Assembly: GCA_050952125.1 (NCBI GenBank)
Contig: JBMNKK010000003.1
Location: 7,952-71,951 of the forward strand
Reading direction: 5' to 3'
DNA: 64,000 nucleotides
DNA from: Bacillota bacterium
GTDB taxonomy: Bacteria > Bacillota > Sulfobacillia > Fermentithermobacillales > Fermentithermobacillaceae
Shown here: positions 427 through 34,303 of the stretch, piece by piece
How positions within the stretch are numbered: the first letter of the stretch is position 1
Layout: every line of letters begins with the position of its first letter
The notes under the pieces: generated by a model
What the model was told of the DNA's origin: nothing
The model's input: only the letters and a program-made list of their open reading frames with translations
The model's database searches: none
Program-made: the position numbers and the translations under genes

Positions 427-1629
427 TTACTTGTAGAACTCCTCCGGGTCGATCTCCGCCCTGGCAATGCCTGAATCTATAGCGGCCTTAGCGACCGCTT
501 TCGCGACGGCGGGGCCCACTCTTTTGTCGAAGGGGTCCACGATGATGTAGTCGGGCTTCAGTTCCGAGGGCGACACGAGTCCGGCGATGGCCTTTGCGGC
601 CGCCAGTTTCATCGCTTCGTTGATATCGCTCGCGCGCGCATCGAGAGCGCCCCGCAAGATGCCGGGGAAGGCTAGTACGTTGTTGACCTGGTTGGGATAG
701 TCCGAACGGCCGGTACCGACTACTCTGGCGCCTCCCGCGAGAGCATCCTCAGGGAAGATCTCGGGCACCGGGTTGGCCATGGCGATGACGATGGGATCCT
801 TACCCATCTTCTTGACCATCTCGGTAGTGATCGTGTTCGGGGCTGAGACTCCGATGAGGATATCCGCTCCCACCAGAGCATCCTCAATTGTGCCCTTGAG
901 GCTTCGCCTGTTTCCTCTCCTGGCGGTTTCTTCTTTGAAGGGGTTCATCCCGTCCGGCCTGCTGGCGTAGATAATCCCTCTGCTGTCGCAGACCAGGACC
1001 TCCTGGAATCCTACGTCGATGAGCAGATTGGCTGTTGCGATTCCTGCTGCGCCAGCCCCTGAGACCACTACTCTGGCCGACTCCGCGGTTTTGCCTACCA
1101 CCTTCAGCGCGTTCAAAAGCGCGGCGAGTACCACTACGGCGGTCCCGTGCTGATCGTCGTGGAATATGGGTATGGAGGTTTCCCTCTTGAGGCGCCGCTC
1201 GATCTCGAAACACTTGGGAGCTGCGATATCCTCCAGGTTCACTCCGCCCAACGTGGGTTCAATCCACTTTACGAACTGCACTATCTCGTCTACTTCCTTG
1301 GTCGCGATGCAGAGGGGGAAGGCGTCAACGTCCGCAAAGGCTTTGAAGAGGAGCGACTTACCCTCCATGACGGGTATCGCCCCGCCCGGACCGATATCTC
1401 CGAGCCCCAGCACGGCTGAGCCGTCTGACACCACGCCGATGAGGTTTCTCTTGAGCGTGTACTCATACGCTGCGTCAGGGTTCTTGGCTATCTCCATGCA
1501 GGCTTCCGCCACGCCGGGAGTGTAGGCCAACGAAAGGTCTTTTCTATCCCTGAGAGGCACTTTGCTCTTGACTTCGAGTTTTCCGTGGTTCTTACGGTGC
1601 AGTTCCAACGCTTCATCTCTAAGACTCAC
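427..1629 (-). CDS. NAD(P)-dependent malic enzyme (malate dehydrogenase, oxaloacetate-decarboxylating), about 400-aa two-domain type.
   Basis: Full-length match by eye to bacterial malic enzymes: AYTPGVA, VVSDGSAVLGLGDIGP and GAGAAGIA Rossmann motifs. Confidence 0.9.
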   Translation of the reverse strand: MSLRDEALELHRKNHGKLEVKSKVPLRDRKDLSLAYTPGVAEACMEIAKNPDAAYEYTLKRNLIGVVSDGSAVLGLGDIGPGGAIPVMEGKSLLFKAFADVDAFPLCIATKEVDEIVQFVKWIEPTLGGVNLEDIAAPKCFEIERRLKRETSIPIFHDDQHGTAVVVLAALLNALKVVGKTAESARVVVSGAGAAGIATANLLIDVGFQEVLVCDSRGIIYASRPDGMNPFKEETARRGNRRSLKGTIEDALVGADILIGVSAPNTITTEMVKKMGKDPIVIAMANPVPEIFPEDALAGGARVVGTGRSDYPNQVNNVLAFPGILRGALDARASDINEAMKLAAAKAIAGLVSPSELKPDYIIVDPFDKRVGPAVAKAVAKAAIDSGIARAEIDPEEFYK

Positions 1630-2222
1630 CGTGGATTCCCCCGTTCATAGATGTCGTTGCCTTTGACGTCGATCCCGACTATTGCCGGGAAGTTTTCGAT
1701 CTCCAGCCGGTATATCGCTTCCGGCCCGAGATCGGGGTAGGCGATGAGGTCGGCCTTCTTAACGGTTCCCGATAGGAGCGCTCCGGCGCCGCCGATCGTC
1801 ACGAAGTAAGGGGCGTTGTACTTGGCTATCGCCGACATGACTTCAGCGCTGCGGCGGCCCTTGCCAATGGCCCCGCCCAGTCCTGCCGCCATGAGTCGAG
1901 GTGCGTACGCGTCCATCCTAGTGCTTGTGGTGGGCCCCAATGACCCGATGACCTGCCCGGGAGCGGGCGGGCACGGGCCGGCATAGTAGATTACCTGGTT
2001 TTTCAGCTCAAGAGGCAGCGGGAGCCCCTTATCCAGCGCTTCAACGATCCTTCTGTGAGCCGCGTCTCTCGCTGTGTAGACCACGCCCGACAAGAGGACC
2101 CGGGTCCCCATCGGCAGCGTTCTTGCTGGGTCTGCTGCCCCATCAAAGGGTACGCGAACCGGGATAGCACCCTCCCAGAAAGAGTCTGTCTTAGCCACAG
2201 TCGGCCACCTCCTCGCCTTCAA
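1626..2222 (-). CDS. Class I fumarate hydratase / Fe-S hydro-lyase beta subunit (FumB/TtdB-like).
   Basis: Typical beta-subunit sequence of two-subunit class I fumarase/tartrate dehydratase. Overlaps the upstream alpha subunit by 32 nt and the downstream gene by 4 nt, consistent with operon coupling. Confidence 0.8.
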   Translation of the reverse strand: MKARRWPTVAKTDSFWEGAIPVRVPFDGAADPARTLPMGTRVLLSGVVYTARDAAHRRIVEALDKGLPLPLELKNQVIYYAGPCPPAPGQVIGSLGPTTSTRMDAYAPRLMAAGLGGAIGKGRRSAEVMSAIAKYNAPYFVTIGGAGALLSGTVKKADLIAYPDLGPEAIYRLEIENFPAIVGIDVKGNDIYERGNPR

Positions 2223-3063
2223 GGACTATAGAAGCCCGCCTCGCGGCGTGGCACTGCAAGTTGACGGCGCAAGGCAGCGCGCCAATGTGGGTGGGGTAGG
2301 TCTCGATGTGGACAGCGATGGCGGTCGTCGACCCGCCCAGTCCGGAGGGGCCGATCCCTAGTGCGTTCACTTCGCGTAGTAGGGTTTCTTCTAGTTCTGC
2401 GACTTTTGGATCGGGGTTAGGCGTTCCTACCGGCCGCAGCACTGCCTTCTTTGCGAGATACGCGGCGGTATCCATCATTCCGCCGACTCCTACCCCAACG
2501 ATCAAGGGCGGGCACGCGTTGGCGCCGCCCTTAGCCACGGCGTCTAGAACCATTCTCTTGACTCCTTCCACTCCTGCGGAAGGAGTGAGCATGTTCAGGA
2601 CGCTCATGTTTTCACTGCCGGTGCCTTTGGGGAACACGGTAATCGCCAGGTTCGACCCTGGAACGATCTCCACGTGGATTACCGGTGGAGTGTTGTCGCC
2701 AGTGTTCGACCTGTCGAACAGGGGGTCCTTGACGACTGATTTCCTAAGATAGCCTTCGACATAACCTTCCGCGACGCCCTTCGTGACGGCTTCACGAAGA
2801 TCGCCGCCCACAAGGTGCAGATCCTGGCCCAACTCTAGGAAGACATAGGTCACGCCTGTGTCTTGGCAGATCGGGATCTTCGTTTCCTTGGCGAGGTTGG
2901 CGTTCTTGACTATCGCCCCAAGGACTTCCTTGCCTAACGGGCTGTCCTCTGTCTCGCTTGCTTTCGCAAGAGCGGTCAAGACGTCGTCCGGGAGCCGGGT
3001 GCCGGCTTGGATACACAGATCCCTGACAGCTTTCCGGACTGAATCGACGCATAGAACCTTCAT
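2191..3063 (-). CDS. Class I fumarate hydratase / Fe-S hydro-lyase alpha subunit (FumA/TtdA-like).
   Basis: N-terminal catalytic-domain sequence of Fe-S hydro-lyases (CQDTG motif region). About 290 aa, paired with the adjacent beta subunit. Confidence 0.8.
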   Translation of the reverse strand: MKVLCVDSVRKAVRDLCIQAGTRLPDDVLTALAKASETEDSPLGKEVLGAIVKNANLAKETKIPICQDTGVTYVFLELGQDLHLVGGDLREAVTKGVAEGYVEGYLRKSVVKDPLFDRSNTGDNTPPVIHVEIVPGSNLAITVFPKGTGSENMSVLNMLTPSAGVEGVKRMVLDAVAKGGANACPPLIVGVGVGGMMDTAAYLAKKAVLRPVGTPNPDPKVAELEETLLREVNALGIGPSGLGGSTTAIAVHIETYPTHIGALPCAVNLQCHAARRASIVLEGEEVADCG

Positions 3064-3115
3064 ACAAGAGTCACCTGCTTCCTAGATATGTTTGGCGTGC
3101 GCGGCAACCGGCCGC

Positions 3116-4471
3116 TCACATTTCAAGCATCCGGAAGAGCAGTCCGGCATCTGAGGCATCCTCAATGCTAAAAGTCGCTTTGACGATGGCCTCGGTCTTC
3201 TCCGGACCCAGCCTGTTTCCTGCGAGATTCTGGAACTTGGCCACTAGATCCTCGCGAGCGAGCGGATTCTCCGGATCGCCCTTCCTAAAGAAGTTTTCCT
3301 GCGCGACAGACGTTCCGTTGTTCAGGAACACCTCAACTTTTGTCGGGCGGCACGAAGGGAAGCGCCGGTCATACTCCGGGTCTACAACGATCTCAACCTT
3401 GTTGGCCAGTTCACGGATTACCGGATTGGCGAGGGCCTCCGGTCCCAGGCTTTCGAAGTCGACCCTGCCTGAGACGAGTGCCGTCGCCAAGCAGAAGGGG
3501 GCGCTGAACATCGCTTCAAACGGCGTCGCGGGATTTGGATTCGCGATGAGTCCCAGCGCTTCCGTATAGGTGGAGAGCCTGATGGAGCGCACGTCTTCAG
3601 GAGATATCTTGTACTGTCCGGTGATCTTGAAAAGCGCGTCAATGGGTGAGTGGGTGTGCCCGCATGACGAGTGTACCTTGAAGTTGCTCTCCATGATCTT
3701 GTAGGACTCTCCCAAGCCTTTCGTTAGGGCGTCGATGTTCGGGCTTTTTGACGTGGCCGCGACGAAGCCCTTTTCTCCCTCGAATATGCGGTGCGGGCCT
3801 GTGAACCCTTTGTCCGCCAGGTAGGCCGCCAGCATTCCGTTTAAGGAGGCTTTAGCCGTATGCAGGACTTTGCTCATGGCTTTGTCGTCGAGGAACTGCC
3901 ACAGGCCTGAAGCCTGAGTCCCGGCCGTTCCCAGAGCGTCTGCTATCTTTTCGGCGTCAAGTCCCATGGCCCGTGCCGAAGCGGCCGCTGCCCCAAACGT
4001 GCCTGCCGTCGCTGTTGTGTGCCAAAAAGCGTAGTGTGACTTGCCCGTGGCTTCTCCCGTACGGAGAGCCACTTCGTAACCTGCAATGATGGACAGGAGC
4101 AACTCTCTGCCCGAAAGGTGCCTTTCTTGCGTCAACGCGGCGGCTGCAGGAATCGTGACTACGGCCCCGTGCATAATCGCTTTCTTATGGCCGTCGTCCA
4201 TCTCCGCCGCGTGGGAAAGGGCACCGTTGGCAAACCCGGCCCACAGAGGGGAAGATCCCCCTCTGTGGCCAACGACGGTCGACTCGCCTCCGGAATTCTG
4301 GCTGAGAGCGAAGTCAACCAGGATACCTGCTCCTTTGTTGTCTAGGCCCGCAACGGCGCAGCCGATCCAATCAAGCAGACACCACTTTGCCTTCTCAATG
4401 ACTTCGGCAGGCACTCTGTCGAAGTCAAGGTCGTGTATGAAAGCGGCCAGTTCTTCAGCTATTGGACGCAT
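3116..4471 (-). CDS. MmgE/PrpD family protein (2-methylcitrate dehydratase / cis-aconitate decarboxylase / iminodisuccinate-epimerase family).
   Basis: 451 aa with the family-typical N-terminal region (LDWIGCAVAG...), conserved HAAEMDD and SHYAFWH stretches. Confidence 0.8.
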   Translation of the reverse strand: MRPIAEELAAFIHDLDFDRVPAEVIEKAKWCLLDWIGCAVAGLDNKGAGILVDFALSQNSGGESTVVGHRGGSSPLWAGFANGALSHAAEMDDGHKKAIMHGAVVTIPAAAALTQERHLSGRELLLSIIAGYEVALRTGEATGKSHYAFWHTTATAGTFGAAAASARAMGLDAEKIADALGTAGTQASGLWQFLDDKAMSKVLHTAKASLNGMLAAYLADKGFTGPHRIFEGEKGFVAATSKSPNIDALTKGLGESYKIMESNFKVHSSCGHTHSPIDALFKITGQYKISPEDVRSIRLSTYTEALGLIANPNPATPFEAMFSAPFCLATALVSGRVDFESLGPEALANPVIRELANKVEIVVDPEYDRRFPSCRPTKVEVFLNNGTSVAQENFFRKGDPENPLAREDLVAKFQNLAGNRLGPEKTEAIVKATFSIEDASDAGLLFRMLEM

Positions 4472-5825
4472 TGGCCTTCTCCTCGCAAAGAGATGCCACT
4501 TTCAATGCCACTTCCTCGCACAATCCAAGGTAGTTTGCCGGATCCAGAGCCTTGTCGATTTCCTCAGCCGTCAGGAGCTCTTTGGTTCGCGGGTCGGCCA
4601 AGAGCGCATCCTTCAGGTAGATGTCGTTTTCGAATGCCTTCATAGACAGCTCGTAGACCAACTCGTGTGCGTGCTGCTTTCCAACTTTGTCGGCCAAAGT
4701 GAACATGACGCGTTCCGACAGGAGCAGGCCCTTTAGGATGTCGAGGTTCTTCCTCATCTTCTCGGGCTTCACTTTGAGATTGGCGACGAGATTCTTGCAG
4801 AATCGTACACAGCATCCGGCGTACTGGCAGGTTTCGGGGATGATCGCCCATTCTGTGCGCCACTGGGCGCCGTCGCGCTCATGCTCTTGCTCCATCACCT
4901 GGGTCATCACCGCGGCGTTTCCACGCACCATTTTGGCCATGCTCATAATGACCTCGCAGGTGCCCGGGTTCCGCTTGTGGGGCATTGTGCTGCTGCCCAC
5001 TTTGCCCTCGGTGAACGCCTCCTCGAGCTCGTCGACTTCTGTGGCCTGGAGGTTGAAGATCTCTTGCCCGATTCTGGCACAGGTAGAAGCGGTGAGGGCA
5101 AGTATGGACAGGAACTCAGCGAACCGGTCCCTTGCTGCATGCCAGCAGATAGCCGGTGTCCCAATCCCGAGCGAATCCATCACTTCTTTTTCTACGGCAC
5201 GTCCCAGGTCTCCAAACGAAGCGTAGGACCCAACCGCTCCGGTCATGTTTCCAACGAGGAGCCTGTCCTTGCTCTCTACTAGTCGATCGATGTTGCGCTG
5301 TACTTCATCTAGCCAAACGGCTGCCTTGAACCCGAAAGTAATTGGAAGAGCCTGTTGGCCATGGGTACGTCCGGCAACGGGCGTGTCCTTGTACTTGCGT
5401 ATTAGAGCGATAAGTTCCGTTCGCAGCCCTTCCAGATCTTTGAGGATAATCGCCCTCGCGTCCCTGAGCTGGAGAACCATCGCGGTGTCCCGGATGTCCT
5501 GGGTGGTGGCACCGTAGTGGATGTACTGGCCAAAGTCACCGTCGCAAGCCTTCTCGAGGGACCTTAGGAGAGGCACCAAACTGTGGCCGGTCTTCCTGAT
5601 CCCGGCCCGGACGTCCTCCATGTTGATATACTCGAACTTGGCCTTGCGGCAGATTTCCTCTGCGGCCTCATTTGGAATGATCCCCAGTTTGGCTTCTGCC
5701 TTGGCAAGAGCAGCCTCAACGTCTAGCAGCCTTTGAACGTTGGTTTTTTCATCCCATACTTCTCTCATGTCGTCCGTAGACACGACGTGCTGGAACAAGA
5801 ACGAGTCAATCATGTGCGAACCCAT
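4455..5825 (-). CDS. Fumarate-lyase (aspartase/fumarase class II) superfamily lyase, closest in appearance to adenylosuccinate lyase / 3-carboxy-cis,cis-muconate cycloisomerase.
   Basis: Signature GSSTMPHKRNP (GSSxMPxKxN). 456 aa. AGGAGG RBS (rc of 5833-5838) precedes the ATG at 5825. Confidence 0.8.
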   Translation of the reverse strand: MGSHMIDSFLFQHVVSTDDMREVWDEKTNVQRLLDVEAALAKAEAKLGIIPNEAAEEICRKAKFEYINMEDVRAGIRKTGHSLVPLLRSLEKACDGDFGQYIHYGATTQDIRDTAMVLQLRDARAIILKDLEGLRTELIALIRKYKDTPVAGRTHGQQALPITFGFKAAVWLDEVQRNIDRLVESKDRLLVGNMTGAVGSYASFGDLGRAVEKEVMDSLGIGTPAICWHAARDRFAEFLSILALTASTCARIGQEIFNLQATEVDELEEAFTEGKVGSSTMPHKRNPGTCEVIMSMAKMVRGNAAVMTQVMEQEHERDGAQWRTEWAIIPETCQYAGCCVRFCKNLVANLKVKPEKMRKNLDILKGLLLSERVMFTLADKVGKQHAHELVYELSMKAFENDIYLKDALLADPRTKELLTAEEIDKALDPANYLGLCEEVALKVASLCEEKANASNS

Positions 5826-5881: not shown

Positions 5882-5897
5882 AAGCAAACTTCATGCC
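5882..5897 (-). promoter_or_regulatory. Sigma-54 (-24/-12) promoter on the minus strand: TGGCAT-gaagt-TTGCT (rc of plus 5882-5897), about 57 nt upstream of the lyase ATG.
   Basis: Seen in sequence. Exact TGGCAY-N5-TTGCW spacing; an EBP gene lies immediately divergent. Confidence 0.55.
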
Positions 5898-6184
5898 ATT
5901 GGGCGCGTGTCCCATTTCTGAAACTCGCACCTTCCCGCACAGAGACCGTTGCTGTATGATGAAAGGTGTCGAATCAGCGCAGGTACGGCTGGAAGAACGG
6001 ATGGTGACCCCAAATTAAAGCGGAATCGGACAGGCTATGGGCCAGGCAGGCGCTTGAACTCGCATCAAAAGCCCTGCACAGAGATATTGGAGTTCTGGAC
6101 CCATCTTTTGATCTCATTTTTGGGACAGGCGCCTTTTCGCCCGACTCCGATACTTCGAAATGGCGTCGTGAGTGCCGGGAAGCA

Positions 6185-7726
6185 GTGAAGAGACATGCGG
6201 GAAAGGCGCGCTTTTCGTCTGAGATCTCGTTTGGTTCGGGCGGGAAGGTGGCGGTTGACCTCCTGGTTCAGCCCGGAGGCTCCATCGTGGTACTGGGGCC
6301 CGCTCCAGATGACGAACAGCACTCGAACGGCAACATGGCGACTATTCTGAGTCTGCTTGGAGAGGCCATCCTCAGACTCAGCACTGAAAATGAGCGCATC
6401 TCCTCCTTTGACGGTCCGGCGGTGATTCTGGAGAAGTCGCTGGACGAGATAGGGGCGGGGTTCATCTTCATAGACCAGGCGGGTCAAGTTCTGGCGAGGA
6501 GCCAGTGGCTTTCCAGCGCCATGCCCGAAGGCAAGACTCTGTACGATATGTTGGATCCAAAGAGCTTGTCGAAACTAGATTTCACTCGCATTTCACGCGC
6601 GACGATTCCCATCTCTCTCAATGGGAACCCGCAGCTCTGCGACGTATCTCTGCTCCCGTTTTCGCTTGCCGGCTCCAGGATCAAGTGGGTCGCGCTCATT
6701 AGGAGGCACGGAGTCCCTGCATCCGCACAGCCGGCCAGCACCGCAGCGACCGGCGCAGATGAGCCGGCACTGGTTGGCAGTTCCCAGGTGGCCCAACGGA
6801 TGAAAACTGAGCTCACCAAGGCGGCCTCAATCGACAGCACAGTATTGCTAACCGGGGAAACGGGGACGGGGAAGAGCCTTGCGGCTCGTTGGATCCACGC
6901 CCGGGGTGCCCGCCGAACAGGACCGTTTGTGGCTGTAAACTGCAGCGCACTCCCTCCGTCACTTATCGAGAGCGAGCTTTTCGGCTACGAAGAGGGGGCC
7001 TTCACGGGTGCAAAGCGAGGCGGGAAACCCGGCAAATTCGAGCTCGCCAACAAAGGGACCATCCTGCTCGATGAAGTAGGCGATCTCCCTTTGGAGATGC
7101 AAGGCAAGCTCTTGCAGGTTCTCGACCTGGGTGAGATCGATAGGATAGGCGGGCGCGAGCCCAAGAAGGTAAATGCCCGGGTTATTGCCGCCACCAACAA
7201 AGACCTATCCGCACAGGTAAAGGCCGGCGCTTTTCGAGCCGACCTCTTCTTCCGCCTTGGCGTCATCTCAATAGAGATACCGGCTCTGCGCGACCGGCTC
7301 GAAGACCTGCCCGACTTGGTGGCGCATTTCATCGAACACCTTGGACAAAAGACGGGAAGAACGGCCCTTAGCATATCGGATGAAGCCCTTGCCCTTCTCC
7401 AGGGATATTCTTGGCCCGGCAACATAAGGGAACTGGCCAATGCGGTGGAGTACGCAATGGTGTTCTGCGAATCTGACACAATAGAGCCTGAACACTTACC
7501 GCTCAGAGTGTCTGCTAACAATGCAATTGAGACAAGGCCCGTCTACAGCCTGGAAGAAGCCGAGCGCAGGGAGATCGCCAAATGTGTCGCCAGCTTTGGC
7601 CTTTCCGAGGAAGGTAAACGCAAGATAGCGGAGGCTCTAGGCGTATCCAGGAGCACAGTCTACAGGAAGCTCAATAAGTACGGGTTTACCGCTGCCCCCA
7701 AGGCGAGTAGGCGGTCTCATAATTGA
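6185..7726 (+). CDS. Sigma-54-dependent transcriptional activator (bacterial enhancer-binding protein): N-terminal sensory region of unknown type, central AAA+ domain, C-terminal Fis-type HTH.
   Basis: Walker A GETGTGKS, GAFTGA motif (EGAFTGA), ESELFG, and a C-terminal HTH (VSRSTVYRKL). The true start may be downstream (e.g. Met at about 6335), because the first 50 aa are atypical. Confidence 0.9.
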   Translation: MKRHAGKARFSSEISFGSGGKVAVDLLVQPGGSIVVLGPAPDDEQHSNGNMATILSLLGEAILRLSTENERISSFDGPAVILEKSLDEIGAGFIFIDQAGQVLARSQWLSSAMPEGKTLYDMLDPKSLSKLDFTRISRATIPISLNGNPQLCDVSLLPFSLAGSRIKWVALIRRHGVPASAQPASTAATGADEPALVGSSQVAQRMKTELTKAASIDSTVLLTGETGTGKSLAARWIHARGARRTGPFVAVNCSALPPSLIESELFGYEEGAFTGAKRGGKPGKFELANKGTILLDEVGDLPLEMQGKLLQVLDLGEIDRIGGREPKKVNARVIAATNKDLSAQVKAGAFRADLFFRLGVISIEIPALRDRLEDLPDLVAHFIEHLGQKTGRTALSISDEALALLQGYSWPGNIRELANAVEYAMVFCESDTIEPEHLPLRVSANNAIETRPVYSLEEAERREIAKCVASFGLSEEGKRKIAEALGVSRSTVYRKLNKYGFTAAPKASRRSHN

Positions 7727-7783
7727 TATCTCATGTCTCAAGCGTGAGACATGCAGACCACAACTCACTCATATTCTCCCGTC

Positions 7784-7804
7784 TCGTAGAACGCGTATCT
7801 ACGA
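7784..7804. promoter_or_regulatory. Inverted repeat TCGTAGA-N7-TCTACGA about 100 nt upstream of the plus-strand sigma-54 promoter; candidate enhancer (UAS) for the EBP.
   Basis: Perfect 7-bp arms seen in sequence. Placement is typical for EBP binding sites. Confidence 0.3.
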
Positions 7805-7887
7805 AACATGCATCGTTCGGCTCCTGATCCTATGTATTAGGCTCGCCAACGCTCCTCTCCAAATTTCCTATCCTCACGATTTCATCT

Positions 7888-7903
7888 CGGCACGCTTCTT
7901 GCT
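7888..7903 (+). promoter_or_regulatory. Sigma-54 (-24/-12) promoter cGGCACG-cttc-TTGCT upstream of the UxaA-type operon.
   Basis: Matches TGGCACG-N4-TTGCW in all positions except the first T. Followed by a GGGAGG RBS (7921-7926) and a GTG start at 7936. Confidence 0.6.
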
Positions 7904-7935
7904 ACATGAGAGGGCGAGAGGGGAGGTGTTCAATC

Positions 7936-8235
7936 GTGGCACATGCCATCGCGCTCAGCGAGAAGGACAACACGGCAACCGCTTTGAGCGATCTTCAAGC
8001 GGGCCTCAGGCCGGTCATTAATGGACCTACTCGATTCCAAGGGATCGAACTGAAAGATGAAATACCGTTTGGCCACAAGTTTGCTTTGGTACCCATCGGC
8101 CTCGGCGAGGAGGTCGTGAAGTACGGCGAGGTCATCGGTATAGCCAGCAAGAGTATCGATGCCGGCGAGTACGTTCACGTTCACAACGTTGTGAGCCGGC
8201 GGGGAAGAGGCGACTTGGAGGTCTCTGAAGCATGA
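7936..8235 (+). CDS. UxaA/GarD-family dehydratase N-terminal SAF-domain small subunit (about 100 aa). The ORF track calls it from 7906, but a GTG at 7936 with an RBS is more likely the start.
   Basis: VVKYGEVIGIASKSIDAGEYVHVHNV matches the SAF/altronate-dehydratase N-terminal motif (…G…IG.A…I..GE.VH.HN). Its stop overlaps the start of the large subunit (ATGA). Confidence 0.7.
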   Translation: MAHAIALSEKDNTATALSDLQAGLRPVINGPTRFQGIELKDEIPFGHKFALVPIGLGEEVVKYGEVIGIASKSIDAGEYVHVHNVVSRRGRGDLEVSEA

Positions 8236-9404
8236 TCCTGAGTGATAGATTCCTGGGGTACAAGAGAGAGAATGGCTCGATAGGGGTACGCAATTACGTA
8301 GGCGTCCTGGCATGCTCGGCGTGCGCTGTTCCTGCTGCAAGGCGCATATCCGAAGCGGTGAACGGCACGGCGTTGTTTACCCACAATCAGGGTTGCTGCG
8401 CGGCCGACGCCGACCTCGAAGCGACGAGGCGCACTCTGGTGTCACTTGCGCTCAATCCCAACCTCCATTCCGTCCTCTTCGTAGCCCTGGGTTGTGAGGG
8501 CCTGCCTGTTGAGCAGATCGTGGAAGAGACCTGCCTTGCCGGAAAGCATGCTGAACTAATAAGTGTAGAGAACTGCGGCGGCACGTCGCTCGCGGTTGCG
8601 CAGGGGACCTTCAGAGCCGAAGAGATGGTTGTCGAGGCATCACGTGCTGAGCGGTGCGAAGCAAGCCTCAGCGACCTGACTATCGGCATCAAATGCGGTG
8701 ACTCCGACGCGATCTCCGGTTTGGGCGCAAACCGCGTGGTGGGCCATGTAGTCGACTCTCTGGTTGCCAAGGGGTGCACTTGTCTTGTCACCGAGGTCAC
8801 AGAGCTCATCGGCGCTGAACACGTCCTGGCGCGCCGCGCAGTGGACGCTATCGTGTCGAGAAAGATCGTAGATGCTGTCGAGACTATGGAGCGGCGTCTC
8901 GCTGCCCACGGTGTCCATCCTCGGAGCGCGGGCGTATCGATCGCGGATGTGTCGGGCGGCCTTACCACAATCGAGGAGAAGTCGTTGGGCGCTCTGACAA
9001 AGACCGGCACCTGCCCTGTCTCAGGCGTGTATCCGTACGGCGAAAGAGTCACGGGTAAAGGACTCATGCTGATTGACGGACCCGGCCGTGAGCCTGAGGC
9101 TCTTACTGCGCTGGCAGCCGGCGGAGCCCACGTGATCCTTTTCACAACAGGTCATGGATCCCCTCAAGGGTTCCCGTTCGTCCCCGTCCTCAAGATCACG
9201 GGCAATCTGCGGAGCTACAAACGAGCCAAGAGCCACATAGATGTCTCGGTATGTGATGTCCTGGACGCCTGGCCCAACGTGGACGAAGCTGCGGCAGGCA
9301 TCGAGAGGGAAGTTATCGCGGTATCTTCCGGCAAGAGAACCCGCGCCGAAGTCACCGGATACTACGAATGCACTGACATATACACGACGGGACTCGTATT
9401 CTGA
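8232..9404 (+). CDS. UxaA family hydrolase, large (C-terminal-domain) subunit, paralogue 1.
   Basis: Characteristic FLGYKRENGSIGVRN start and a Cys-rich metal site (GCCAAD, GCEG). 390 aa. Confidence 0.8.
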   Translation: MILSDRFLGYKRENGSIGVRNYVGVLACSACAVPAARRISEAVNGTALFTHNQGCCAADADLEATRRTLVSLALNPNLHSVLFVALGCEGLPVEQIVEETCLAGKHAELISVENCGGTSLAVAQGTFRAEEMVVEASRAERCEASLSDLTIGIKCGDSDAISGLGANRVVGHVVDSLVAKGCTCLVTEVTELIGAEHVLARRAVDAIVSRKIVDAVETMERRLAAHGVHPRSAGVSIADVSGGLTTIEEKSLGALTKTGTCPVSGVYPYGERVTGKGLMLIDGPGREPEALTALAAGGAHVILFTTGHGSPQGFPFVPVLKITGNLRSYKRAKSHIDVSVCDVLDAWPNVDEAAAGIEREVIAVSSGKRTRAEVTGYYECTDIYTTGLVF

Positions 9405-9430
9405 GCAGTTTCGGAATCGGCAGTCGGACA

Positions 9431-10615
9431 ATGGGGGAAGAGGAATTGGCGGCCACACGGTTTTTAGGATATGCAAGACCAGACGGGTCGATAGGTGTCA
9501 GGAACTCGACCGCAGTCATGTCCGCGGTTATGTGTGCCAACGAGGTAACCGAGGACATTGCCAAAGGTATTGATGGAGCCATCGCTGTTGTCCACGGCCA
9601 TGGATGTTGCCAGCTGCCTCCCGACCTGGCACTTGTCCAGCGGACGCTCATAAACATCGGCAAGAACCCCAACATCGCCAACGTCATTTTGGTGTCTTTG
9701 GGCTGCGAGGGCGTAGACCCGGACGCCGTCGCCCAAGAACTCACCGCCGCTGGCAAGGCTGTGGAGGTGATTAGGATCCAGGAGGAAGGCGGCACTCTTC
9801 CTGCCACCGAGAGAGGGCGCCGCGTCTGCGAGAAGTGGAGGTCTCTGGCATCTAAAGTAGAGCGTGCCAGCTTTGACGCCACCGAACTCACGATAGGTAT
9901 CAAGTGTGGTTCGTCAGATACCACCTCAGGCCTAATCTGCAATCCATCCGTCGGCAGGCTGACGGACCGGTTCGTCGCCGAAGGCGGGACAGTGATCTTC
10001 GGCGAAACCACTGAGTTTATCGGAGCCGAGCACCTTTTGGCGCAGCGGGGATGCACGCCCGAAGTGAAGGCTGCGATACCAAAGATCGTCGCCGAGATGG
10101 AAGAGCGTTGCCTCACCATGAAGGTGGACATGCGTACAGGGCAGCCCACTCCGGGAAACATCAGGGGTGGCCTCACCACGATTGAGGAGAAGTCGCTGGG
10201 CGCGATATCGAAGTCGGGAACCGGCAAGATAAAAGGCGTCCTCGAGTACGGCGAACGCCCACAGTCTAAAGGCCTATTCATCATGGACAGCCCGGGAAGG
10301 GAACCTGAACTGCTCACCGGACTTGCGGCATCGGGCTGCTCCATAGTGCTCTTCACAACGGGGCGGGGTGCTCTGCAGGGTCATCCCGTCGTTCCTGTGA
10401 TCAAGATCACGGGCAACGAGCGCACCGCCCAACACCTCGCCAGTCACATGGATGTGGATGTCAGCGCGGCCCTGACAAGACACGCATCCCTGGACGAAAT
10501 GGCTGATCTCATATGGAGCAAGATCGTGGATGTTGCTTCGGGTACCCTCACCAAGGCCGAGATTCACGGTTGCGGACGATTCATGAACATCTATGTGAAA
10601 GGTCCCATTATCTAA
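9431..10615 (+). CDS. UxaA family hydrolase, large subunit, paralogue 2 (tandem duplicate of the previous gene).
   Basis: FLGYARPDGSIGVRN start, and GCEG, GIKCGSSD and TTIEEKSLGA blocks co-linear with paralogue 1. 394 aa. Confidence 0.8.
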   Translation: MGEEELAATRFLGYARPDGSIGVRNSTAVMSAVMCANEVTEDIAKGIDGAIAVVHGHGCCQLPPDLALVQRTLINIGKNPNIANVILVSLGCEGVDPDAVAQELTAAGKAVEVIRIQEEGGTLPATERGRRVCEKWRSLASKVERASFDATELTIGIKCGSSDTTSGLICNPSVGRLTDRFVAEGGTVIFGETTEFIGAEHLLAQRGCTPEVKAAIPKIVAEMEERCLTMKVDMRTGQPTPGNIRGGLTTIEEKSLGAISKSGTGKIKGVLEYGERPQSKGLFIMDSPGREPELLTGLAASGCSIVLFTTGRGALQGHPVVPVIKITGNERTAQHLASHMDVDVSAALTRHASLDEMADLIWSKIVDVASGTLTKAEIHGCGRFMNIYVKGPII

Positions 10616-10653
10616 AGGATCCGGAGAAACCACAATCAGGAGGATGAAAAGCA

Positions 10654-11622
10654 GTGTCTAGGAGATTGACTCTCAGAGTCGTAGCATGTTTCGTTCTACT
10701 TGCAGGCATCCTGCTCTCCGCATGTACTCCCAAAGAATCCGAGGCACCGGCGTACCCGTCAAAGGGTCTCGAATTCGTAGTACCCTTCGCCGCAGGCGGA
10801 GCAGTTGACCTGACCAGCCGTATACTCTGCACCGAAGTTGAGAAGACGCTCGGCCAGAAGTTCACCATTGCCAACAAACCCACAGGTGGAGCTGTGGAAG
10901 GCCTAAGCTACGTTGCCCGCGCCGCGGCCGACGGCTATACGCTCGGTGCCGCGACTTCGTCACTGGTCACCAACATCCTTACCAAGGACGTCGACTTCAC
11001 TCTCGATTCCTACGATCCTATCGCCATGTACTCTTTTGACCCCATGGTGTTTGTCGTCAACGCGGATTCTCCGTGGGAGAGTCTCGATGAAGTGGTTGAG
11101 GCCTCCAAGACCCAGTCGCTGGCTGCTTCCACTCCCGGCCTTGCCAACTCAAAGCACATCGCAGGTATGCTCTTCGAGCAGGAATCCGGAGCGAAATTCA
11201 CCTACGTGCATACCGGCGGAGCCAGTGAAGGCGTTCCCATGCTGGCCGGCGGGCACGTCCAGGTCGGTTGCTGGTCTTGGGGCGAGGTAAAAGCGATGGT
11301 AGACGCCGGCAAACTCCGGGTACTCGGTGTCATGTCAGAAGAGCGCGACGAGAGAATACCCGATGTCCCGACCTTCAAAGAGCAGGGATATGACCTGGTC
11401 TACGGCGCATGGCGTGGAATCGCGGCCCCCAAGGGACTGCCCGACGATGTCAAGGCGACGCTGACCAAAGCGTTTGGAGACGCTATCCAGAATCCTGACG
11501 TTGTGAAGCAGTTGAAGGATGCCGGCTTCCCGGTCCTTTACAAGGACGCTGAGGGCTTCTGGGATTTTGTCAAGGCTGACTACGACTACGTAAAGGCGAT
11601 CCTCGAGACGCTGGAGGACTAG
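10654..11622 (+). CDS. tctC: Tripartite tricarboxylate transporter substrate-binding lipoprotein TctC (Bug family).
   Basis: Signal peptide plus LLSAC lipobox. TctC-family sequence throughout (PGGAVD..., ...GTPGLANSKHIAG). Confidence 0.8.
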   Translation: MSRRLTLRVVACFVLLAGILLSACTPKESEAPAYPSKGLEFVVPFAAGGAVDLTSRILCTEVEKTLGQKFTIANKPTGGAVEGLSYVARAAADGYTLGAATSSLVTNILTKDVDFTLDSYDPIAMYSFDPMVFVVNADSPWESLDEVVEASKTQSLAASTPGLANSKHIAGMLFEQESGAKFTYVHTGGASEGVPMLAGGHVQVGCWSWGEVKAMVDAGKLRVLGVMSEERDERIPDVPTFKEQGYDLVYGAWRGIAAPKGLPDDVKATLTKAFGDAIQNPDVVKQLKDAGFPVLYKDAEGFWDFVKADYDYVKAILETLED

Positions 11623-11647
11623 GCAAGCCTAGTAGATAGCAAAGGAG

Positions 11648-12904
11648 ATGACGGGTGTGGCTCTACCGCGGCTCTTTCCTATACGGCAGAGGTTTGTCAA
11701 CAGGGCGCTGCCTGATGTGTCTAAGGCGACAGAAGAGGCTTTCCTGCGATCCCACGTGCTCGATGCACTCTTGCCCGGACAGTCGGTAGCGGTATGCGTG
11801 GGGAGCAGGGGAATCTCAAATCTAGCTGAGATAGTGAAGAAGACCGTCGACCTGGTCCGTGCCAGAGGAGCCACCCCCTTCATCGTACCCGCCATGGGCA
11901 GCCATGGCGGGGGCAACGCAGAAGGGCAGACGCATCTCCTCGATCACTACGGGATTTCCGAGGCGAGCATGGGATGCGCTGTAAAGGCCGATATGTCAAC
12001 CACAGAGGTCGGACGCAGTCCCGAAGGCATAAGAGCGTACGTATCTAACGAGGCTCTTAAGGCGGATCACATTATCGCAGTTAACCGAGTAAAACCGCAT
12101 ACCGAGTTCGAAGGCGCGATTGAGAGCGGCATTCTGAAGATGCTCTGCATTGGCCTGGGTAAGTTGGACGGTGCCCAGCATTACCACAGCATCGGGATGA
12201 GGCTTGGCTTCGAGCACACGTTGCGTACCGGAGGCAGGTTGGTGCTGGACAATGCACCGGTCCTGTGCGGGCTAGCTATTGTTGAGGACTCATACGATCA
12301 GACCGCCATCATCGAGGCGCTCCGTCCTGATGGCCTGGAAGCAAGAGAAGAAGAGTTGTTGAAACTAGCGAAAAGTTGGGTTCCTAAGCTGCCCTTTGAC
12401 GAGGCTGATGTCCTTATCGTGAACCAGATGGGCAAGGACGTCTCGGGGACCGGAATGGACACCAAGACCGTTGGGCGTATCATGAGCGTCTACGCGAAGG
12501 AGCCAAAGTCGCCCCGCATCACCAGAATAGCTGTTCTAGACGCAAGTGAAGGGAACGATGGAAACCTTCTCGGGATAGGGCTTGCGGATTTCACGACGGA
12601 AAGGCTCGTCTCCAAGATGGATCCCGCGAAGGTGCACCTGAATGCCACAGCGGCACTCACCCCGGAAAAGGCCCGCGTGCCAATGTGGTTTTCATCTGAT
12701 ATTGAGCTGTTCAAGACGTGTTTTGCCACGATAGCGCCTCTTGATCCTCTCGACCAGAAGGTGATGCGGATCCAGGATACCCGCCACCTTGAGGTAGTCT
12801 GGGTATCCGAAGCTTACCTTCCTGAGGTTAAGGGCAGACCGGATCTAGAGATAGCGGGTCCGGCCGAAGAAATGCGTTTTGACAATAACGGTCGTCTTAT
12901 CTGA
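11648..12904 (+). CDS. LarA-like / DUF2088 (lactate-racemase N-terminal-like) domain protein, inserted between tctC and tctB.
   Basis: About 420 aa with a layout reminiscent of LarA (AMGSHGG in place of the ATGTHR block, GLGKLDG...HYH). It lacks the D-x-T-R-P block of true LarA, so the functional call is tentative. Confidence 0.45.
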   Translation: MTGVALPRLFPIRQRFVNRALPDVSKATEEAFLRSHVLDALLPGQSVAVCVGSRGISNLAEIVKKTVDLVRARGATPFIVPAMGSHGGGNAEGQTHLLDHYGISEASMGCAVKADMSTTEVGRSPEGIRAYVSNEALKADHIIAVNRVKPHTEFEGAIESGILKMLCIGLGKLDGAQHYHSIGMRLGFEHTLRTGGRLVLDNAPVLCGLAIVEDSYDQTAIIEALRPDGLEAREEELLKLAKSWVPKLPFDEADVLIVNQMGKDVSGTGMDTKTVGRIMSVYAKEPKSPRITRIAVLDASEGNDGNLLGIGLADFTTERLVSKMDPAKVHLNATAALTPEKARVPMWFSSDIELFKTCFATIAPLDPLDQKVMRIQDTRHLEVVWVSEAYLPEVKGRPDLEIAGPAEEMRFDNNGRLI

Positions 12905-12907
12905 AAG

Positions 12908-13381
12908 GTGTTGATGAACGCGATGAAGATCACCCAGCTGGTGACAGGATTGGTCCTGCTCGCGCTGGTCGGGGTCATGTTCTTCACCACGACCAACATG
13001 AAGTACATGATCGGCGGAACACCGGGGCCAAGGTTCATGCCGTTGGTGCTCTCCGTTGCCTTATCGATACTCATCGTCATCTACTGGATTGAAGCCTATG
13101 CGGCCAGAAACGAAGAGCAGAAGTCGCCGTGGGACGTAAAGGCGCTCCCTAAGCCGCTGACCTTCCTCGCGATATGCATTGGACTGGTCATCCTTTGGAA
13201 CCCGTTGGGAGCTCTGCCCTCGGTGTTTCTGGCGGCTGTCGCGGAACTTAAGCTTCTGGAAAAGTGGACGTGGAAGCGCGCCCTCATGGTGTCGTTCATC
13301 ATGACCGTTTTCACCTGGGCGCTTTTTGGCAAGGCTCTCGCGATCCAGTTCCCCGCCGGCATATTGCGCGGGATCATATAG
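12908..13381 (+). CDS. tctB: Tripartite tricarboxylate transporter small membrane subunit TctB.
   Basis: 157-aa, 4-TM hydrophobic protein located between TctC and TctA. Confidence 0.65.
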   Translation: MLMNAMKITQLVTGLVLLALVGVMFFTTTNMKYMIGGTPGPRFMPLVLSVALSILIVIYWIEAYAARNEEQKSPWDVKALPKPLTFLAICIGLVILWNPLGALPSVFLAAVAELKLLEKWTWKRALMVSFIMTVFTWALFGKALAIQFPAGILRGII

Positions 13382-13396
13382 AGAGGATGAGGTGAA

Positions 13397-14899
13397 GTGG
13401 ACGTCTTAAGTCTACTGCTAAAGGGCTTCAGTGTCGCCTTAACCCCGCAGAACCTGCTTCTTTGCGCCGGCGGAGTTATCATGGGCACTCTCGTGGGAGC
13501 CCTTCCCGGAATCGGACCCACCGGCGCTGTGGCAATGCTGCTCCCGGCGACGTTCAAGATGCACCCAGCAGGCGCCCTGATCATGCTTGCCGGTATCTAC
13601 TACGGGACTCAGTACGGTGGAACGATCACATCGGTTCTGATGGGCGTGCCTGGAGAATCTGCGTCAGTCGTAACCGCGATGGACGGTTATCAGATGGCCA
13701 AGAAAGGGCGCGCGGGAGCCGCGCTGGGAATAGCCGCCATCGGTTCGTTTGTTGGCGGAACCCTAAGCGTATTGGGGCTAATGCTCGTCGGCCCCAAGCT
13801 CGCTTCGTTTGCCCTCATGTTCGGCCCTACCCAGTACTTTGCCTTAATGATGATGGCGTTCTCACTCGTCACGGCCTTCACGGGTAAGTCCACAACGAGA
13901 GGACTAATCTCGCTGGCCGTCGGAATCTTCCTATCGTTGGTGGGCCAGGATGTGATGACCGGGGCCGAGCGGTTCACCTTCGGACAGGTCGCGCTGATCG
14001 ATGGAATCAAGTTCCTTCCCGTCGGCGTCGGCATGTTCGGCTTGGCAGAGATACTTGAGGGGTTCGAGGAAGAGGAATCCTCTGACATGATTGAGGCCGA
14101 CCTGCACTGGAGGAAAGTGCTTCCCAGTAAGGCTGAGATGAAAGAGTGCGCGGGGCCGATTGCTCGCGGCACGCTCATAGGCTTCCTCTCGGGACTTCTC
14201 CCCGGTGTTGGAGCGACTATCTGCTCGTTCCTGTCGTACGGAGTTGAGCAGAGGATCTCGAAGAAACCGGAGGAGTTCGGAAAGGGTTCCCCGGCTGGGG
14301 TTGCGGCTCCTGAGACCGCCAACAACGCGTGCACCGGAGCGGCTTTTGTCCCGATGTTGAGCTTGGGTATTCCTGCGGGTGCGACTTCGGCCGTCCTTCT
14401 GGGAGCTCTCATCATGTTTGGCCTGCAGCCCGGGCCGCTTCTGTTCCAGCAGTCGCCTGACGTGGTCTGGGGCCTTATTGCCAGTATGTACATTGGCAAC
14501 GTGATGCTCGCTGTGATCAACGTGGCTTGTATCCCTGCTTTTGTGTGGATAATGGATAAGATCAAGAGTTACCTGTCCATCGTCGTACTGCTGCTGGCGA
14601 CGTTCGGCGTATACAGCTATCAGAACTCTATCGCCGACGTGTTCATAATGATCGTATTCGCGGTTGTCGGGTACCTGATGGGCAAGGTTGGAATCCCGAA
14701 GGCGCCTCTGGTCTTGGGCCTGCTGTTGGGCGGCATGGCTGAGTCAAGCCTCAGGCAAGCGCTTACGATCTCCCACGGTAGCCTTTCAATCTTCTTCGAG
14801 AGCCCCATAACCATGACTTTCCTCGCTCTCGCAGTCCTATCTTTGGGGGCGGGCCGGCTCACAAGGGGCGGAGGCAAGAAGAAGAAGGCCGAAGCGTAG
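13397..14899 (+). CDS. tctA: Tripartite tricarboxylate transporter permease TctA.
   Basis: 500 aa and polytopic; the duplicated TctA-family motif GVLPGIGPT / GLLPGVGAT is present. Confidence 0.9.
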   Translation: MDVLSLLLKGFSVALTPQNLLLCAGGVIMGTLVGALPGIGPTGAVAMLLPATFKMHPAGALIMLAGIYYGTQYGGTITSVLMGVPGESASVVTAMDGYQMAKKGRAGAALGIAAIGSFVGGTLSVLGLMLVGPKLASFALMFGPTQYFALMMMAFSLVTAFTGKSTTRGLISLAVGIFLSLVGQDVMTGAERFTFGQVALIDGIKFLPVGVGMFGLAEILEGFEEEESSDMIEADLHWRKVLPSKAEMKECAGPIARGTLIGFLSGLLPGVGATICSFLSYGVEQRISKKPEEFGKGSPAGVAAPETANNACTGAAFVPMLSLGIPAGATSAVLLGALIMFGLQPGPLLFQQSPDVVWGLIASMYIGNVMLAVINVACIPAFVWIMDKIKSYLSIVVLLLATFGVYSYQNSIADVFIMIVFAVVGYLMGKVGIPKAPLVLGLLLGGMAESSLRQALTISHGSLSIFFESPITMTFLALAVLSLGAGRLTRGGGKKKKAEA

Positions 14900-14911
14900 G
14901 GAGACTTGATG

Positions 14912-14936
14912 CGGAGCAGGGATATCCCTGCTCCGT
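14912..14936 (+). terminator. Possible weak terminator hairpin after tctA (CGGAGCAGG-gatat-CCTGCTCCG).
   Basis: 9-10 bp stem seen in sequence. The U-tract is poor, so this may be only an attenuating hairpin. Confidence 0.3.
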
Positions 14937-14973
14937 CAAAATCTGTAGGACTTTTCGTTCTGGGGGGCCACAC

Positions 14974-17522: not shown

Positions 17523-17577
17523 CGTGATCGTAGCAACTACGGGCAGAAACGTATAATAGCGGGTTGTGATTGAACTG

Positions 17578-17592
17578 ATAAGATTCTGTTAT
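17578..17592. promoter_or_regulatory. LysR-type T-N11-A box with dyad symmetry (ATAAGA-ttc-TGTTAT) in the divergent larA/lysR intergenic region.
   Basis: Seen in sequence. The position between the divergent genes is classic for LTTR autoregulation/activation sites. Confidence 0.4.
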
Positions 17593-17599
17593 CGAGGCG

Positions 17600-18565: not shown

Positions 18566-18633
18566 GCAAGTGTTATCCGCGTTTATACAGTACGGATATT
18601 TCACCCCGGAGGACGACAGGTGCTAGTCTTGGA

Positions 18634-34270: not shown

Positions 34271-34303
34271 AACAAAACCTCCTTCTGGCTGAGCAAACAA
34301 CAT

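Follow-up and report, generated by a model that had tools for sequence, protein, structure and literature searches.

A five-gene operon pairing a fumarate-lyase-family enzyme with an MmgE/PrpD protein: a candidate route from 2-substituted succinates to pyruvate in a Bacillota bacterium

A block of five genes at positions 427-5825 of a 64-kb stretch of an uncultured Bacillota bacterium's genome (Fermentithermobacillaceae; contig JBMNKK010000003.1, positions 7,952 to 71,951; hereafter the window) encodes a fumarate-lyase-family enzyme, an MmgE/PrpD-family protein, the two subunits of a class I (Fe-S) fumarase and a malic enzyme, and is considered here as the putative catabolic core for a 2-substituted succinate. 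The five open reading frames (ORFs) lie tightly packed on the minus strand at the coordinates given by the initial annotation, and the Pfam assignments bear out the families named there (Table 1). The lyase gene shares 17 nt with the PrpD gene, 52 nt separate the PrpD gene from the fumarase alpha gene, and the fumarase beta and malic enzyme genes overlap by 4 nt. The overlap between the two fumarase genes is at most 32 nt, its size being set by the choice of the beta start codon; the true start of beta is perhaps a few codons downstream of 2222, with the family-model alignment beginning at residue 31. Within the block the minus strand showed no terminator-like site, and the spacing suggests that the five genes are co-transcribed.

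The NCBIfam models class the two-subunit enzyme as a class I fumarase, both subunits being far above what they reach with the tartrate dehydratase models. The alpha subunit passes the fumarate hydratase model NF004885 (395 bits, cut-off 276) and stays below that of tartrate dehydratase alpha, TtdA (216 bits, cut-off 365), while the beta subunit passes TIGR00723 (172.6 bits, cut-off 145), lies slightly under the cut-off of NF005310 (228.8 bits against 238) and scores 74 bits with TtdB. The malic enzyme aligns to the first 413 positions of the NADP-malic enzyme model NF009501, and is 57-61% identical to the malic enzymes of four related clusters discussed below (L004, L075, L076 and L160; loci are numbered with the prefix L).

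Table 1. Genes and sequence elements of the window around the lyase operon (positions are those of the window; scores in bits)
Feature	Position	Strand	Assignment and remarks
Lyase	4455-5825	-	456 aa; Lyase_1 164, ADSL_C 74.5 (Pfam)
MmgE/PrpD protein	3116-4471	-	451 aa; MmgE_PrpD_N 246.8, MmgE_PrpD_C 151.2 (Pfam)
Class I (Fe-S) fumarate hydratase, alpha subunit	2191-3063	-	Fumerase 376.5 (Pfam)
Class I fumarate hydratase, beta subunit	1626-2222	-	Fumerase_C 190.8 (Pfam)
Malic enzyme	427-1629	-	Short-form, NAD(P)-dependent (malate to pyruvate + CO2); malic 104.9, Malic_M 84 (Pfam)
Sigma-54-type -24/-12 element TGGCATgaagtTTGC	5884-5898	-	One mismatch to TGGCAC-N5-TTGC; 58 nt upstream of the lyase ATG
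Sigma-54 enhancer-binding activator	6185-7726	+	Divergent; Sigma54_activat 213.9 (Pfam); likely start ATG 6332
Palindrome ATGTCTCAagcgTGAGACAT	7733-7752		Perfect palindrome
Palindrome TCGTAGAacgcgtaTCTACGA	7784-7804		Perfect palindrome
Second sigma-54-like element CGGCACgcttcTTGC	7888-7902	+	Ahead of the next plus-strand operon
SAF	Probable start GTG 7936	+	Downstream of the activator, behind CGGCACgcttcTTGC; operon 7888-16239
Two UxaA/GD_AH large-subunit paralogues	Between SAF and TctC	+	44% identical to each other
TctC	10654-11622	+	Tripartite tricarboxylate-type uptake system
Nickel-pincer (NPN) isomerase, group 22	11648-12904	+	NF052515, 474 (cut-off 400)
TctB	12908-13381	+	Tripartite tricarboxylate-type uptake system
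TctA	13397-14899	+	Tripartite tricarboxylate-type uptake system
CitMHS transporter	Last of operon 7888-16239	+	After TctA
LarA homologue	Within region 16236-22541	-	Closest to nickel-dependent malate racemase, 447 (cut-off 500)
LysR regulator and two tandem aconitase-family paralogues	16236-22541		After LarA; aconitases 49% identical, both pass PRK07229
[FeFe]-hydrogenase large-subunit-like gene	32771-34312	-	Fe_hyd_lg_C and ferredoxin domains

The lyase carries the motifs GRTHGQ (residue 152) and GSSTMPHKRNP (residue 277) of the fumarate-lyase (lyase class I) fold, and profile searches take it beyond the superfamily named in the initial annotation. Its best NCBIfam score is with XcbD, the cysteine-adding enzyme of bacterial coenzyme M synthesis (515 bits, cut-off 600), followed by the "adenylosuccinate lyase" subfamily PRK08937.2-4 (503.5 bits, cut-off 626). 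All PcaB models remain under their cut-offs (PRK09053, 407.1 against 595; further models, 311.7 against 355.75 and 214.2 against 371), and the PurB model TIGR00928 is passed at 378 bits (cut-off 326.2), with three other models scoring higher. The PDB matches are led by 3C8T, an uncharacterised "fumarate lyase" (335 bits), followed by Tad1 (294 bits), PcaB (288 bits) and PurB (234-256 bits); EDDS (ethylenediaminedisuccinate) lyase is absent from the best 60.

A characterised enzyme with this profile, described by Hillmann et al. (2022, J Biol Chem, PMC9706529), is S-(2-succino) lyase (2SL), which splits N-acetyl-S-(2-succino)cysteine into fumarate and N-acetylcysteine. It is encoded in scm/yxe loci, which also contain YxeQ, an MmgE/PrpD protein without an assigned function. 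According to the primer sequences of that study, 2SL begins with MGSHVID or MASHLID, and a degenerate pattern derived from these primers yielded the loci of Enterococcus italicus and Dickeya as well as about 40 orthologues from the genome collection. The window lyase begins with MGSHMID, sharing the start MGSHxID with 2SL, and is end to end 44.5% identical to the E. italicus and about 47% identical to the Dickeya enzyme (43-47% overall). The characterised 2SL references (E. italicus E6LDH5 and D. dadantii E0SKP1) resemble the window lyase in their NCBIfam scores (PRK08937.2-4, about 484; XcbD, about 450; PcaB, about 400; PurB, about 367 bits), and since they also exceed the TIGR00928 cut-off, passing it is no evidence for PurB. 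XcbD, or 3-sulfopropionylcysteine synthase, is likewise PurB-like and joins free L-cysteine to an activated alkene by a C-S bond (Wu et al., 2022, PNAS, PMC9457059), a reaction opposite in direction to the cleavage that we propose. By contrast, XcbD acts on sulfoacrylate in a biosynthetic cluster with XcbB, XcbC and XcbE, none of whose genes is present in the window, the lyase stays below the XcbD cut-off, and it is 41.8% identical to the XcbD orthologue within a coenzyme M-biosynthesis cluster on a Mycolicibacterium plasmid. The lyase is thus placed in the 2SL/XcbD subfamily and predicted to release fumarate from a succino adduct. Under a strict filter a single alignment column (A246 versus S) separates the "catabolic" from the 2SL-type lyases, with 56 columns invariant, so that the lyase sequence itself offers no handle on the substrate.

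The MmgE/PrpD protein has two best PDB matches at 134 bits each, Bacillus subtilis "IRG1" (7BRA) and the iminodisuccinate (IDS) epimerase (2HP0), and reaches 115-118 bits with cis-aconitate decarboxylases and 31 bits with true PrpD. The name-giving activity of the family, 2-methylcitrate dehydratase, was rejected, as its equivalog models are far from being reached (TIGR02330, 32.5 against 458; NF006943, 34.3 against 575; NF042438, 81.6 against 950). The residues of the two-base epimerase mechanism have been listed recently (Gonner et al., 2025, Commun Biol, PMC12290011), and all have a counterpart in the window protein. Of the two catalytic bases, H99 and Y145 in the IDS epimerase, the counterparts are H101 and Y147, while the carboxylate and enolate ligands H85, D88 (D or E), H150, K198 and K266 correspond to H87, E90, H151, K201 and K265, respectively. 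With the exception of E90, which is found in at least 90%, these residues are invariant in 14 aligned relatives, including the YxeQ-like protein of E. italicus. The segment containing the tyrosine fails to align with cis-aconitate decarboxylases, and the epimerase tyrosine is reported to be missing from the mammalian enzyme (IRG1). Furthermore, the central region of the window protein scores 68.9 bits with the IDS epimerase versus 31 bits with cis-aconitate decarboxylase.

A precedent within the family is the (S)-(R)-methylsuccinate isomerase, which inverts the same carbon of a 2-substituted succinate without a cofactor, using the same His/Tyr/Lys set, and thereby makes both stereoisomers degradable (Gonner et al., 2025). 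It differs in that it is found almost only in Pseudomonadota, beside methylsuccinyl-CoA dehydrogenase and CoA transferase genes, acts on a carbon substituent and has no lyase partner. The complete two-base residue set together with this precedent leads us to read the window protein as a 2-substituted-succinate epimerase, which, judging from the conserved residues, probably inverts C2 without a cofactor. In the databases, practically every homologue of the lyase goes under the name "adenylosuccinate lyase", and many of the PrpD-like homologues are entered as "2-methylcitrate dehydratase"; these names are probably systematic misannotations.

The pairing of the two genes is conserved, and recurs across many unrelated genomes (at least 13 loci from six phyla). 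They are adjacent in the window, in L001/L002, L003, L004, L079, L080, L160 and L161, in L075 and L076/L077 from Aminobacterium (Synergistota), in the Prevotella-type loci L019 and L031 and on an E. coli plasmid (L168), and lie within a few kilobases of each other in a Deferribacterales metagenome-assembled genome and on a haloarchaeal plasmid. A sister cluster is carried by a cultured Aminobacterium sp. (CP133089.1). In two loci on rhizobial plasmids, the gene of the lyase homologue has no PrpD gene beside it. In the validated locus of E. italicus for S-(2-succino)cysteine (2SC), the PrpD-family gene precedes the 2SL gene by 3 nt in the same orientation; behind the 2SL gene lie genes for a GNAT acetyltransferase, a solute-binding protein (SBP_bac_3), a permease, an ATPase and an M20 protein. 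This layout of scm-type sulfur salvage with GNAT and M20 (type A) is also seen in the Paenibacillus loci L159 and L161. Type B, found in anaerobes, combines TctCBA, lyase, PrpD, class II FumC and malic enzyme (L003, L004, L075, L076, L079 and L080), often with an SDH_alpha protein of 430-443 aa and sometimes with RidA, DUF1847 or an MR_MLE dehydratase. In type C, represented by the window and L160 (Clostridia bacterium BRH_c25), the pair, fumarase and malic enzyme are accompanied by a SAF/UxaA-type dehydratase, a nickel-pincer racemase, TctCBA and an aconitase. TctC(BA) genes accompany the pair in L001, L003, L004, L075, L076, L079, L080, L159, L160 and L161.

The most telling difference between these clusters concerns the fumarase step, which is filled by the class I Fe-S enzyme in the window and by the non-homologous class II FumC in six others (L004, L075, L076, L079, L080 and L160; TIGR00979, 752.9 bits, equivalog cut-off 664.75), four of which keep the malic enzyme (L004, L075, L076 and L160). 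Such a replacement by a non-homologous enzyme is strong evidence that fumarate is a true intermediate. As to the other product, the SDH_alpha protein of five sister clusters has the L-cysteine desulfidase CyuA as its only relative in the PDB (E = 1.4e-32, full length), and one of these clusters also encodes RidA, which fits the release of free cysteine. The lyase and PrpD protein of the window fall into the same clade as those of the CyuA-containing loci L003 and L004 (57-63% and 50% identity).

Several of the loci deserve mention in their own right. L168 (NZ_CP069439.1, 8001-10388) is located on an IncF plasmid of a human E. coli isolate, and carries an apparently frameshifted lyase gene, whose product is 45% identical, followed directly by an MmgE/PrpD gene. 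The DUF1847 protein, of unknown function, is encoded at the end of differing PrpD-containing clusters (L075:18288-18920, L076:14085-14672 and L078:16688-17422). A further cluster (L085:3755-21265) encodes a malate racemase (523 bits, cut-off 500), a TAXI-TRAP transporter, an Fe-ADH, a PrpD-like protein, an SDR and a GntR protein, together with class I fumarase, malic enzyme, an aspartase/FumC-like lyase, an aldehyde:ferredoxin oxidoreductase and an Asp/Glu racemase; it may represent an N-linked counterpart, with release of aspartate, to the pathway proposed below.

2SC arises when a thiol adds spontaneously to fumarate. We read the operon as the catabolic core for a heteroatom-linked 2-substituted succinate, the best candidate being an S-(2-succino) adduct such as 2SC, and assign this reading a probability of roughly 0.55. 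In the first step the adduct would be taken up, probably by the neighboring TctCBA system; 2SC is a tricarboxylate and thus suits a Tct importer. The MmgE/PrpD protein would then interconvert the two configurations at the succinyl C2 by a cofactor-free two-base mechanism (His101/Tyr147). As chemical addition of thiols to fumarate yields both configurations, such an epimerase would make both diastereomers usable. Subsequently, the 2SL-like lyase would β-eliminate the leaving group to release fumarate, the class I fumarase would convert fumarate to malate, and the malic enzyme would carry out the irreversible decarboxylation to pyruvate. In the characterised 2SL reaction the equilibrium lies far on the side of the adduct (Kc 0.005-0.007), so that co-expressed fumarase and malic enzyme, together with the cysteine desulfidase in the sister clusters, would supply a thermodynamic pull. 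This would explain why lyase, PrpD, fumarase and malic enzyme functions travel together. The general scheme, which leads from a succinyl-type adduct through fumarate and malate to pyruvate and had been put forward in the initial annotation, is likely to be right and well supported by the conserved pair, the replacement by FumC and the epimerase residues. The S-linked, 2SC-type nature of the substrate is more tentative, and we hold it at somewhat less than an even chance.

Upstream of the lyase ATG, which is preceded by the ribosome-binding site AGGAGG, lies a sigma-54-type element, and a sigma-54 enhancer-binding activator is encoded divergently, the N-terminal sensor region of which matched no Pfam family. 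The related clusters L004 and L075 likewise start with a sigma-54 activator. Expression of the operon is probably driven from a sigma-54 promoter by the divergent activator. A search for an activator-binding site shared by the two sigma-54 promoter regions on either side of the activator gene gave a 9-mer located inside the activator ORF as the only common sequence, and rpoN was not found within the window. Between the activator gene and the second promoter there are two perfect palindromes, ATGTCTCAagcgTGAGACAT and TCGTAGAacgcgtaTCTACGA, which could be activator-binding sites or a terminator stem; they are confined to the region 7727-7890, with no counterpart upstream of the lyase promoter.

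A number of observations weigh against a 2SC pathway of the known kind. In a neighbor-joining tree rooted on E. coli PurB, which the lyase homologues on Variovorax and Niallia plasmids entered as sequences only (unannotated records), the 2SL/scm enzymes form one clade with 58-68% identity among themselves, and the window lyase is found outside of it, in a sister clade with L001, L003, L004, L075 and P0008. Furthermore, tblastn with the E. italicus proteins and a Pfam survey detected none of the 2SC (scm/yxe) accessory genes in the 64-kb window, namely those for the GNAT acetyltransferase ScmL, the M20 deacetylase ScmP and the amino-acid ABC transporter. On these two grounds the lyase is not filed as a 2SL orthologue. 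The window also lacks the genes by which the sister clusters encode RidA, DUF1847 and the cysteine-desulfidase-like protein. Between its PrpD protein and the YxeQ-type proteins beside true 2SL genes the identity is no more than 24-27%, and PrpD-like proteins at 40-44% identity mostly occur in quite different clusters with SucCD-like and SdhAB-like genes. This indicates that the function of PrpD-family proteins shifts over short evolutionary distances; most of these relatives stand beside SucCD/SdhAB-like genes without a lyase, and are thus unusable for inferring the function of the operon. The window and L160 moreover place the pair beside genes for UxaA-type dehydratases, nickel-pincer racemases and aconitases, which are unexplained by the 2SC model and could point to a different leaving group. 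Finally, TGGCATgaagtTTGC carries one mismatch to the sigma-54 consensus, and the number of such motifs in the window is at chance (five matches with at most one mismatch versus 3.9 expected), so that the promoter argument is purely positional: two of the five sit, correctly oriented, in the two intergenic regions flanking the activator gene.

The comparison with the scm/yxe loci (Hillmann et al., 2022) reflects this balance. Shared are the lyase subfamily, with its sequence identity, NCBIfam profile, N-terminus and the 56 invariant residues, a PrpD-family gene right beside the lyase gene (of the YxeQ type in the known loci), and fumarate as the (here predicted) product. By contrast, the known loci salvage sulfur by N-acetylation, cleavage and deacetylation after import by an ABC transporter, whereas the window has none of these genes and instead joins the lyase to fumarase and malic enzyme, which would serve carbon and energy supply, with a putative Tct importer and probable control by sigma-54. 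A separate observation concerns the cluster met among the PrpD relatives: in the metagenome loci L088-L158, SucC/SucD-like and SdhA/SdhB-like genes flank roughly half of the 80 PrpD-like proteins (40-44% identity). This abundant and apparently undescribed cluster looks like a pathway for a succinate derivative, such as methylsuccinate, in sediment anaerobes.

Among the alternatives, an N-linked substrate would leave most of the scheme intact. In this case the pair would act on iminodisuccinate or a natural N-(1,2-dicarboxyethyl) amino acid and release fumarate and an amino acid, as do the IDS epimerase and the stereoselective C-N lyase of Agrobacterium tumefaciens BY6. In that system, the MmgE/PrpD-family epimerase reportedly opens all stereoisomers of a 2-substituted succinate to the stereoselective, fumarate-releasing lyase (Cokesa, 2004; Lohkamp, 2006). 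The window protein conserves all catalytic residues of this epimerase (H99, Y145 and the carboxylate ligands) and is nearest to it in its central region. Most characterised members of the lyase superfamily are C-N lyases (PurB, ArgH, CreD), and the top PDB match, 3C8T, stems from a chelator degrader, Mesorhizobium/Chelativorans sp. BNC1. The SDH_alpha/RidA pair could in principle deaminate serine, not cysteine. However, both characterised enzymes of the lyase subfamily, 2SL and XcbD, make or break C-S bonds, EDDS lyase is outside the 60 best PDB matches, and for the SDH_alpha protein of the sister clusters cysteine desulfidase is the sole match in the PDB. The chelator IDS is synthetic and degraded by an aerobic alphaproteobacterium, whereas the clusters come from anaerobes of digesters, sediments and rock porewater; the identity to the epimerase is low. 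Furthermore, tblastn against 72,556 plasmids gave no close homologue of the IDS epimerase (at most 41% identity). An N-linked substrate is thus unlikely, and of the IDS/EDDS logic invoked by the initial annotation, the combination of epimerase and lyase is supported, whereas the assignment to C-N aminopolycarboxylates is not.

The same chemistry with another leaving group has to be considered in view of the genes on the other side of the activator. Behind the second sigma-54-like element, the plus-strand operon 7888-16239 encodes the SAF and UxaA/GD_AH proteins, TctCBA, a nickel-pincer isomerase and CitMHS, followed by the region with LarA, LysR and the aconitases; TctCBA is the probable importer of the lyase pathway. 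None of the cofactor genes larB, larC and larE was seen in the window. UxaA-like homologues at 56-59% identity lie in unrelated neighborhoods and suggest no role for the operon. In L160, genes for LarA, SAF, GD_AH, TctCBA, aconitase, PrpD, lyase, FumC and malic enzyme form one co-directional string, while on the Sporomusa termitida plasmid pSPTER (L172) a module of SAF/UxaA, group-22 isomerase, TctCBA and MR_MLE is present without lyase or PrpD. The plus-strand genes may hence be an independent module for a hydroxy-dicarboxylate, for example tartrate, the product of which, oxaloacetate, converges on the same end enzymes; alternatively, their role in this organism may be to process a leaving group other than cysteine.

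Candidate substrates of the lyase in the latter case are mercaptosuccinate and thiodisuccinate, from which H2S or thiomalate would be released, as well as sulfosuccinate and S- or O-(2-succino) hydroxy acids. The hydroxy acid or thiol set free would pass to the UxaA-type dehydratases, which are relatives of sulfolactate sulfo-lyase, and to the nickel-pincer racemases. This would fit the lack of a cysteine desulfidase in the window, the position of SAF, two GD_AH proteins, the group-22 isomerase and the malate-racemase-like LarA under or beside the same activator, and the union of all these genes with the pair, FumC and malic enzyme in L160. The equivalent place in L004, L075 and L080 is taken by a non-homologous dehydratase of the acid-sugar type (MR_MLE), and 2SL enzymes are promiscuous towards small thiols. 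However, the module stands alone on pSPTER, natural abundance is not documented for any of the proposed substrates, and the cysteine-desulfidase clusters encode orthologues of the window lyase and PrpD protein. We therefore regard a different leaving group, too, as rather improbable. The remainder of the window holds Firmicute-type housekeeping genes; the [FeFe]-hydrogenase-like gene among the features of Table 1, next to which an ABC transporter of the metal/cobalamin type and a chelation protein (DUF364) are encoded, fits an anaerobic lifestyle.

Tricarboxylate chemistry is still less probable. Here, the PrpD protein would act as a decarboxylase of cis-aconitate or as a dehydratase, and the lyase as a Tad1-like trans-aconitate decarboxylase or a PcaB-like, lactonising cycloisomerase, with the substrate provided through TctCBA or CitMHS and the nearby aconitases. 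Indeed, Tad1 and PcaB rank above PurB among the PDB matches of the lyase, those of the PrpD protein include cis-aconitate decarboxylases, and two aconitase-family genes, CitMHS and Tct lie nearby, with an aconitase gene embedded in L160. However, itaconate is unable to feed the fumarase and malic enzyme route, and the swap of the class I fumarase for a bona fide class II FumC argues for fumarate itself as the intermediate. The PrpD protein possesses the epimerase tyrosine missing from the decarboxylases and is far below the true-PrpD models. For the lyase, the identity as PcaB was rejected, since all PcaB models stay under their cut-offs and no pca genes lie nearby. With itaconate-CoA genes likewise missing from the neighborhood, the carboxymuconate and itaconate chemistries listed as alternatives in the initial annotation are unlikely. 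PurB, PcaB and Tad1 share the fold, the catalytic Ser-loop and the His motifs with the window lyase and are the source of its automated annotation names, but they score below the 2SL/XcbD subfamily, lack a purine, β-ketoadipate or itaconate context in the window, and would, in the case of PcaB and Tad1, yield products of no use to fumarase and malic enzyme. That the lyase is PurB, made for purine synthesis from a fortuitous operon position, is very improbable, as, although the TIGR00928 cut-off is passed and all named homologues bear this annotation, so do the characterised 2SL enzymes pass it, other families and the structure 3C8T score higher than PurB and its structures, the identity to E. 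coli PurB is 22%, no pur genes are found in the window, and a pairing with PrpD, Tct, fumarase and malic enzyme lacks purine logic; the lyase is hence not the confident PurB orthologue that the initial annotation had allowed for.

Returning to the heteroatom-linked, most plausibly S-linked succinate as the substrate, the type of lyase is known, while the energy-yielding layout and the role of the partner enzyme appear undescribed in the literature that we found: nothing came up on the function of YxeQ/ScmQ, on a 2SC epimerase or on this catabolic gene combination, and the authors of the 2SL study themselves state that the distribution of 2SL orthologues is unclear and YxeQ without known function (Hillmann et al., 2022). 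Succination, the spontaneous addition of fumarate to thiols, gives rise to stable adducts, for which two bacterial disposal routes are known, both being sulfur salvage that requires N-acetylation. The locus and its relatives suggest a third layout, which would be catabolic and independent of oxygen, with the lyase equilibrium pulled by fumarase and malic enzyme, and thus an anaerobic fate for succinated thiols. They also suggest a testable function for the PrpD-family partner of 2SL, the epimerisation of the succinyl carbon, and that the names "adenylosuccinate lyase" and "2-methylcitrate dehydratase" are probably wrong for hundreds of database entries.

In its broadest form, the proposal would be that anaerobes of the Bacillota, Synergistota and other groups ferment succinated thiols such as 2SC for carbon and energy, using Tct uptake, a PrpD-family epimerase, a 2SL-type lyase, fumarase and malic enzyme and, in the sister clusters, a cysteine desulfidase, with the window locus as a variant in which UxaA-type eliminases and nickel-pincer racemases handle the leaving group. 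As a whole this is speculative, and we think it more likely wrong than right. If true, it would provide the first function for YxeQ-like proteins, and one adduct would give two pyruvate. Even if the substrate is not 2SC, the cluster would define a general route for 2-substituted succinates in anaerobes.

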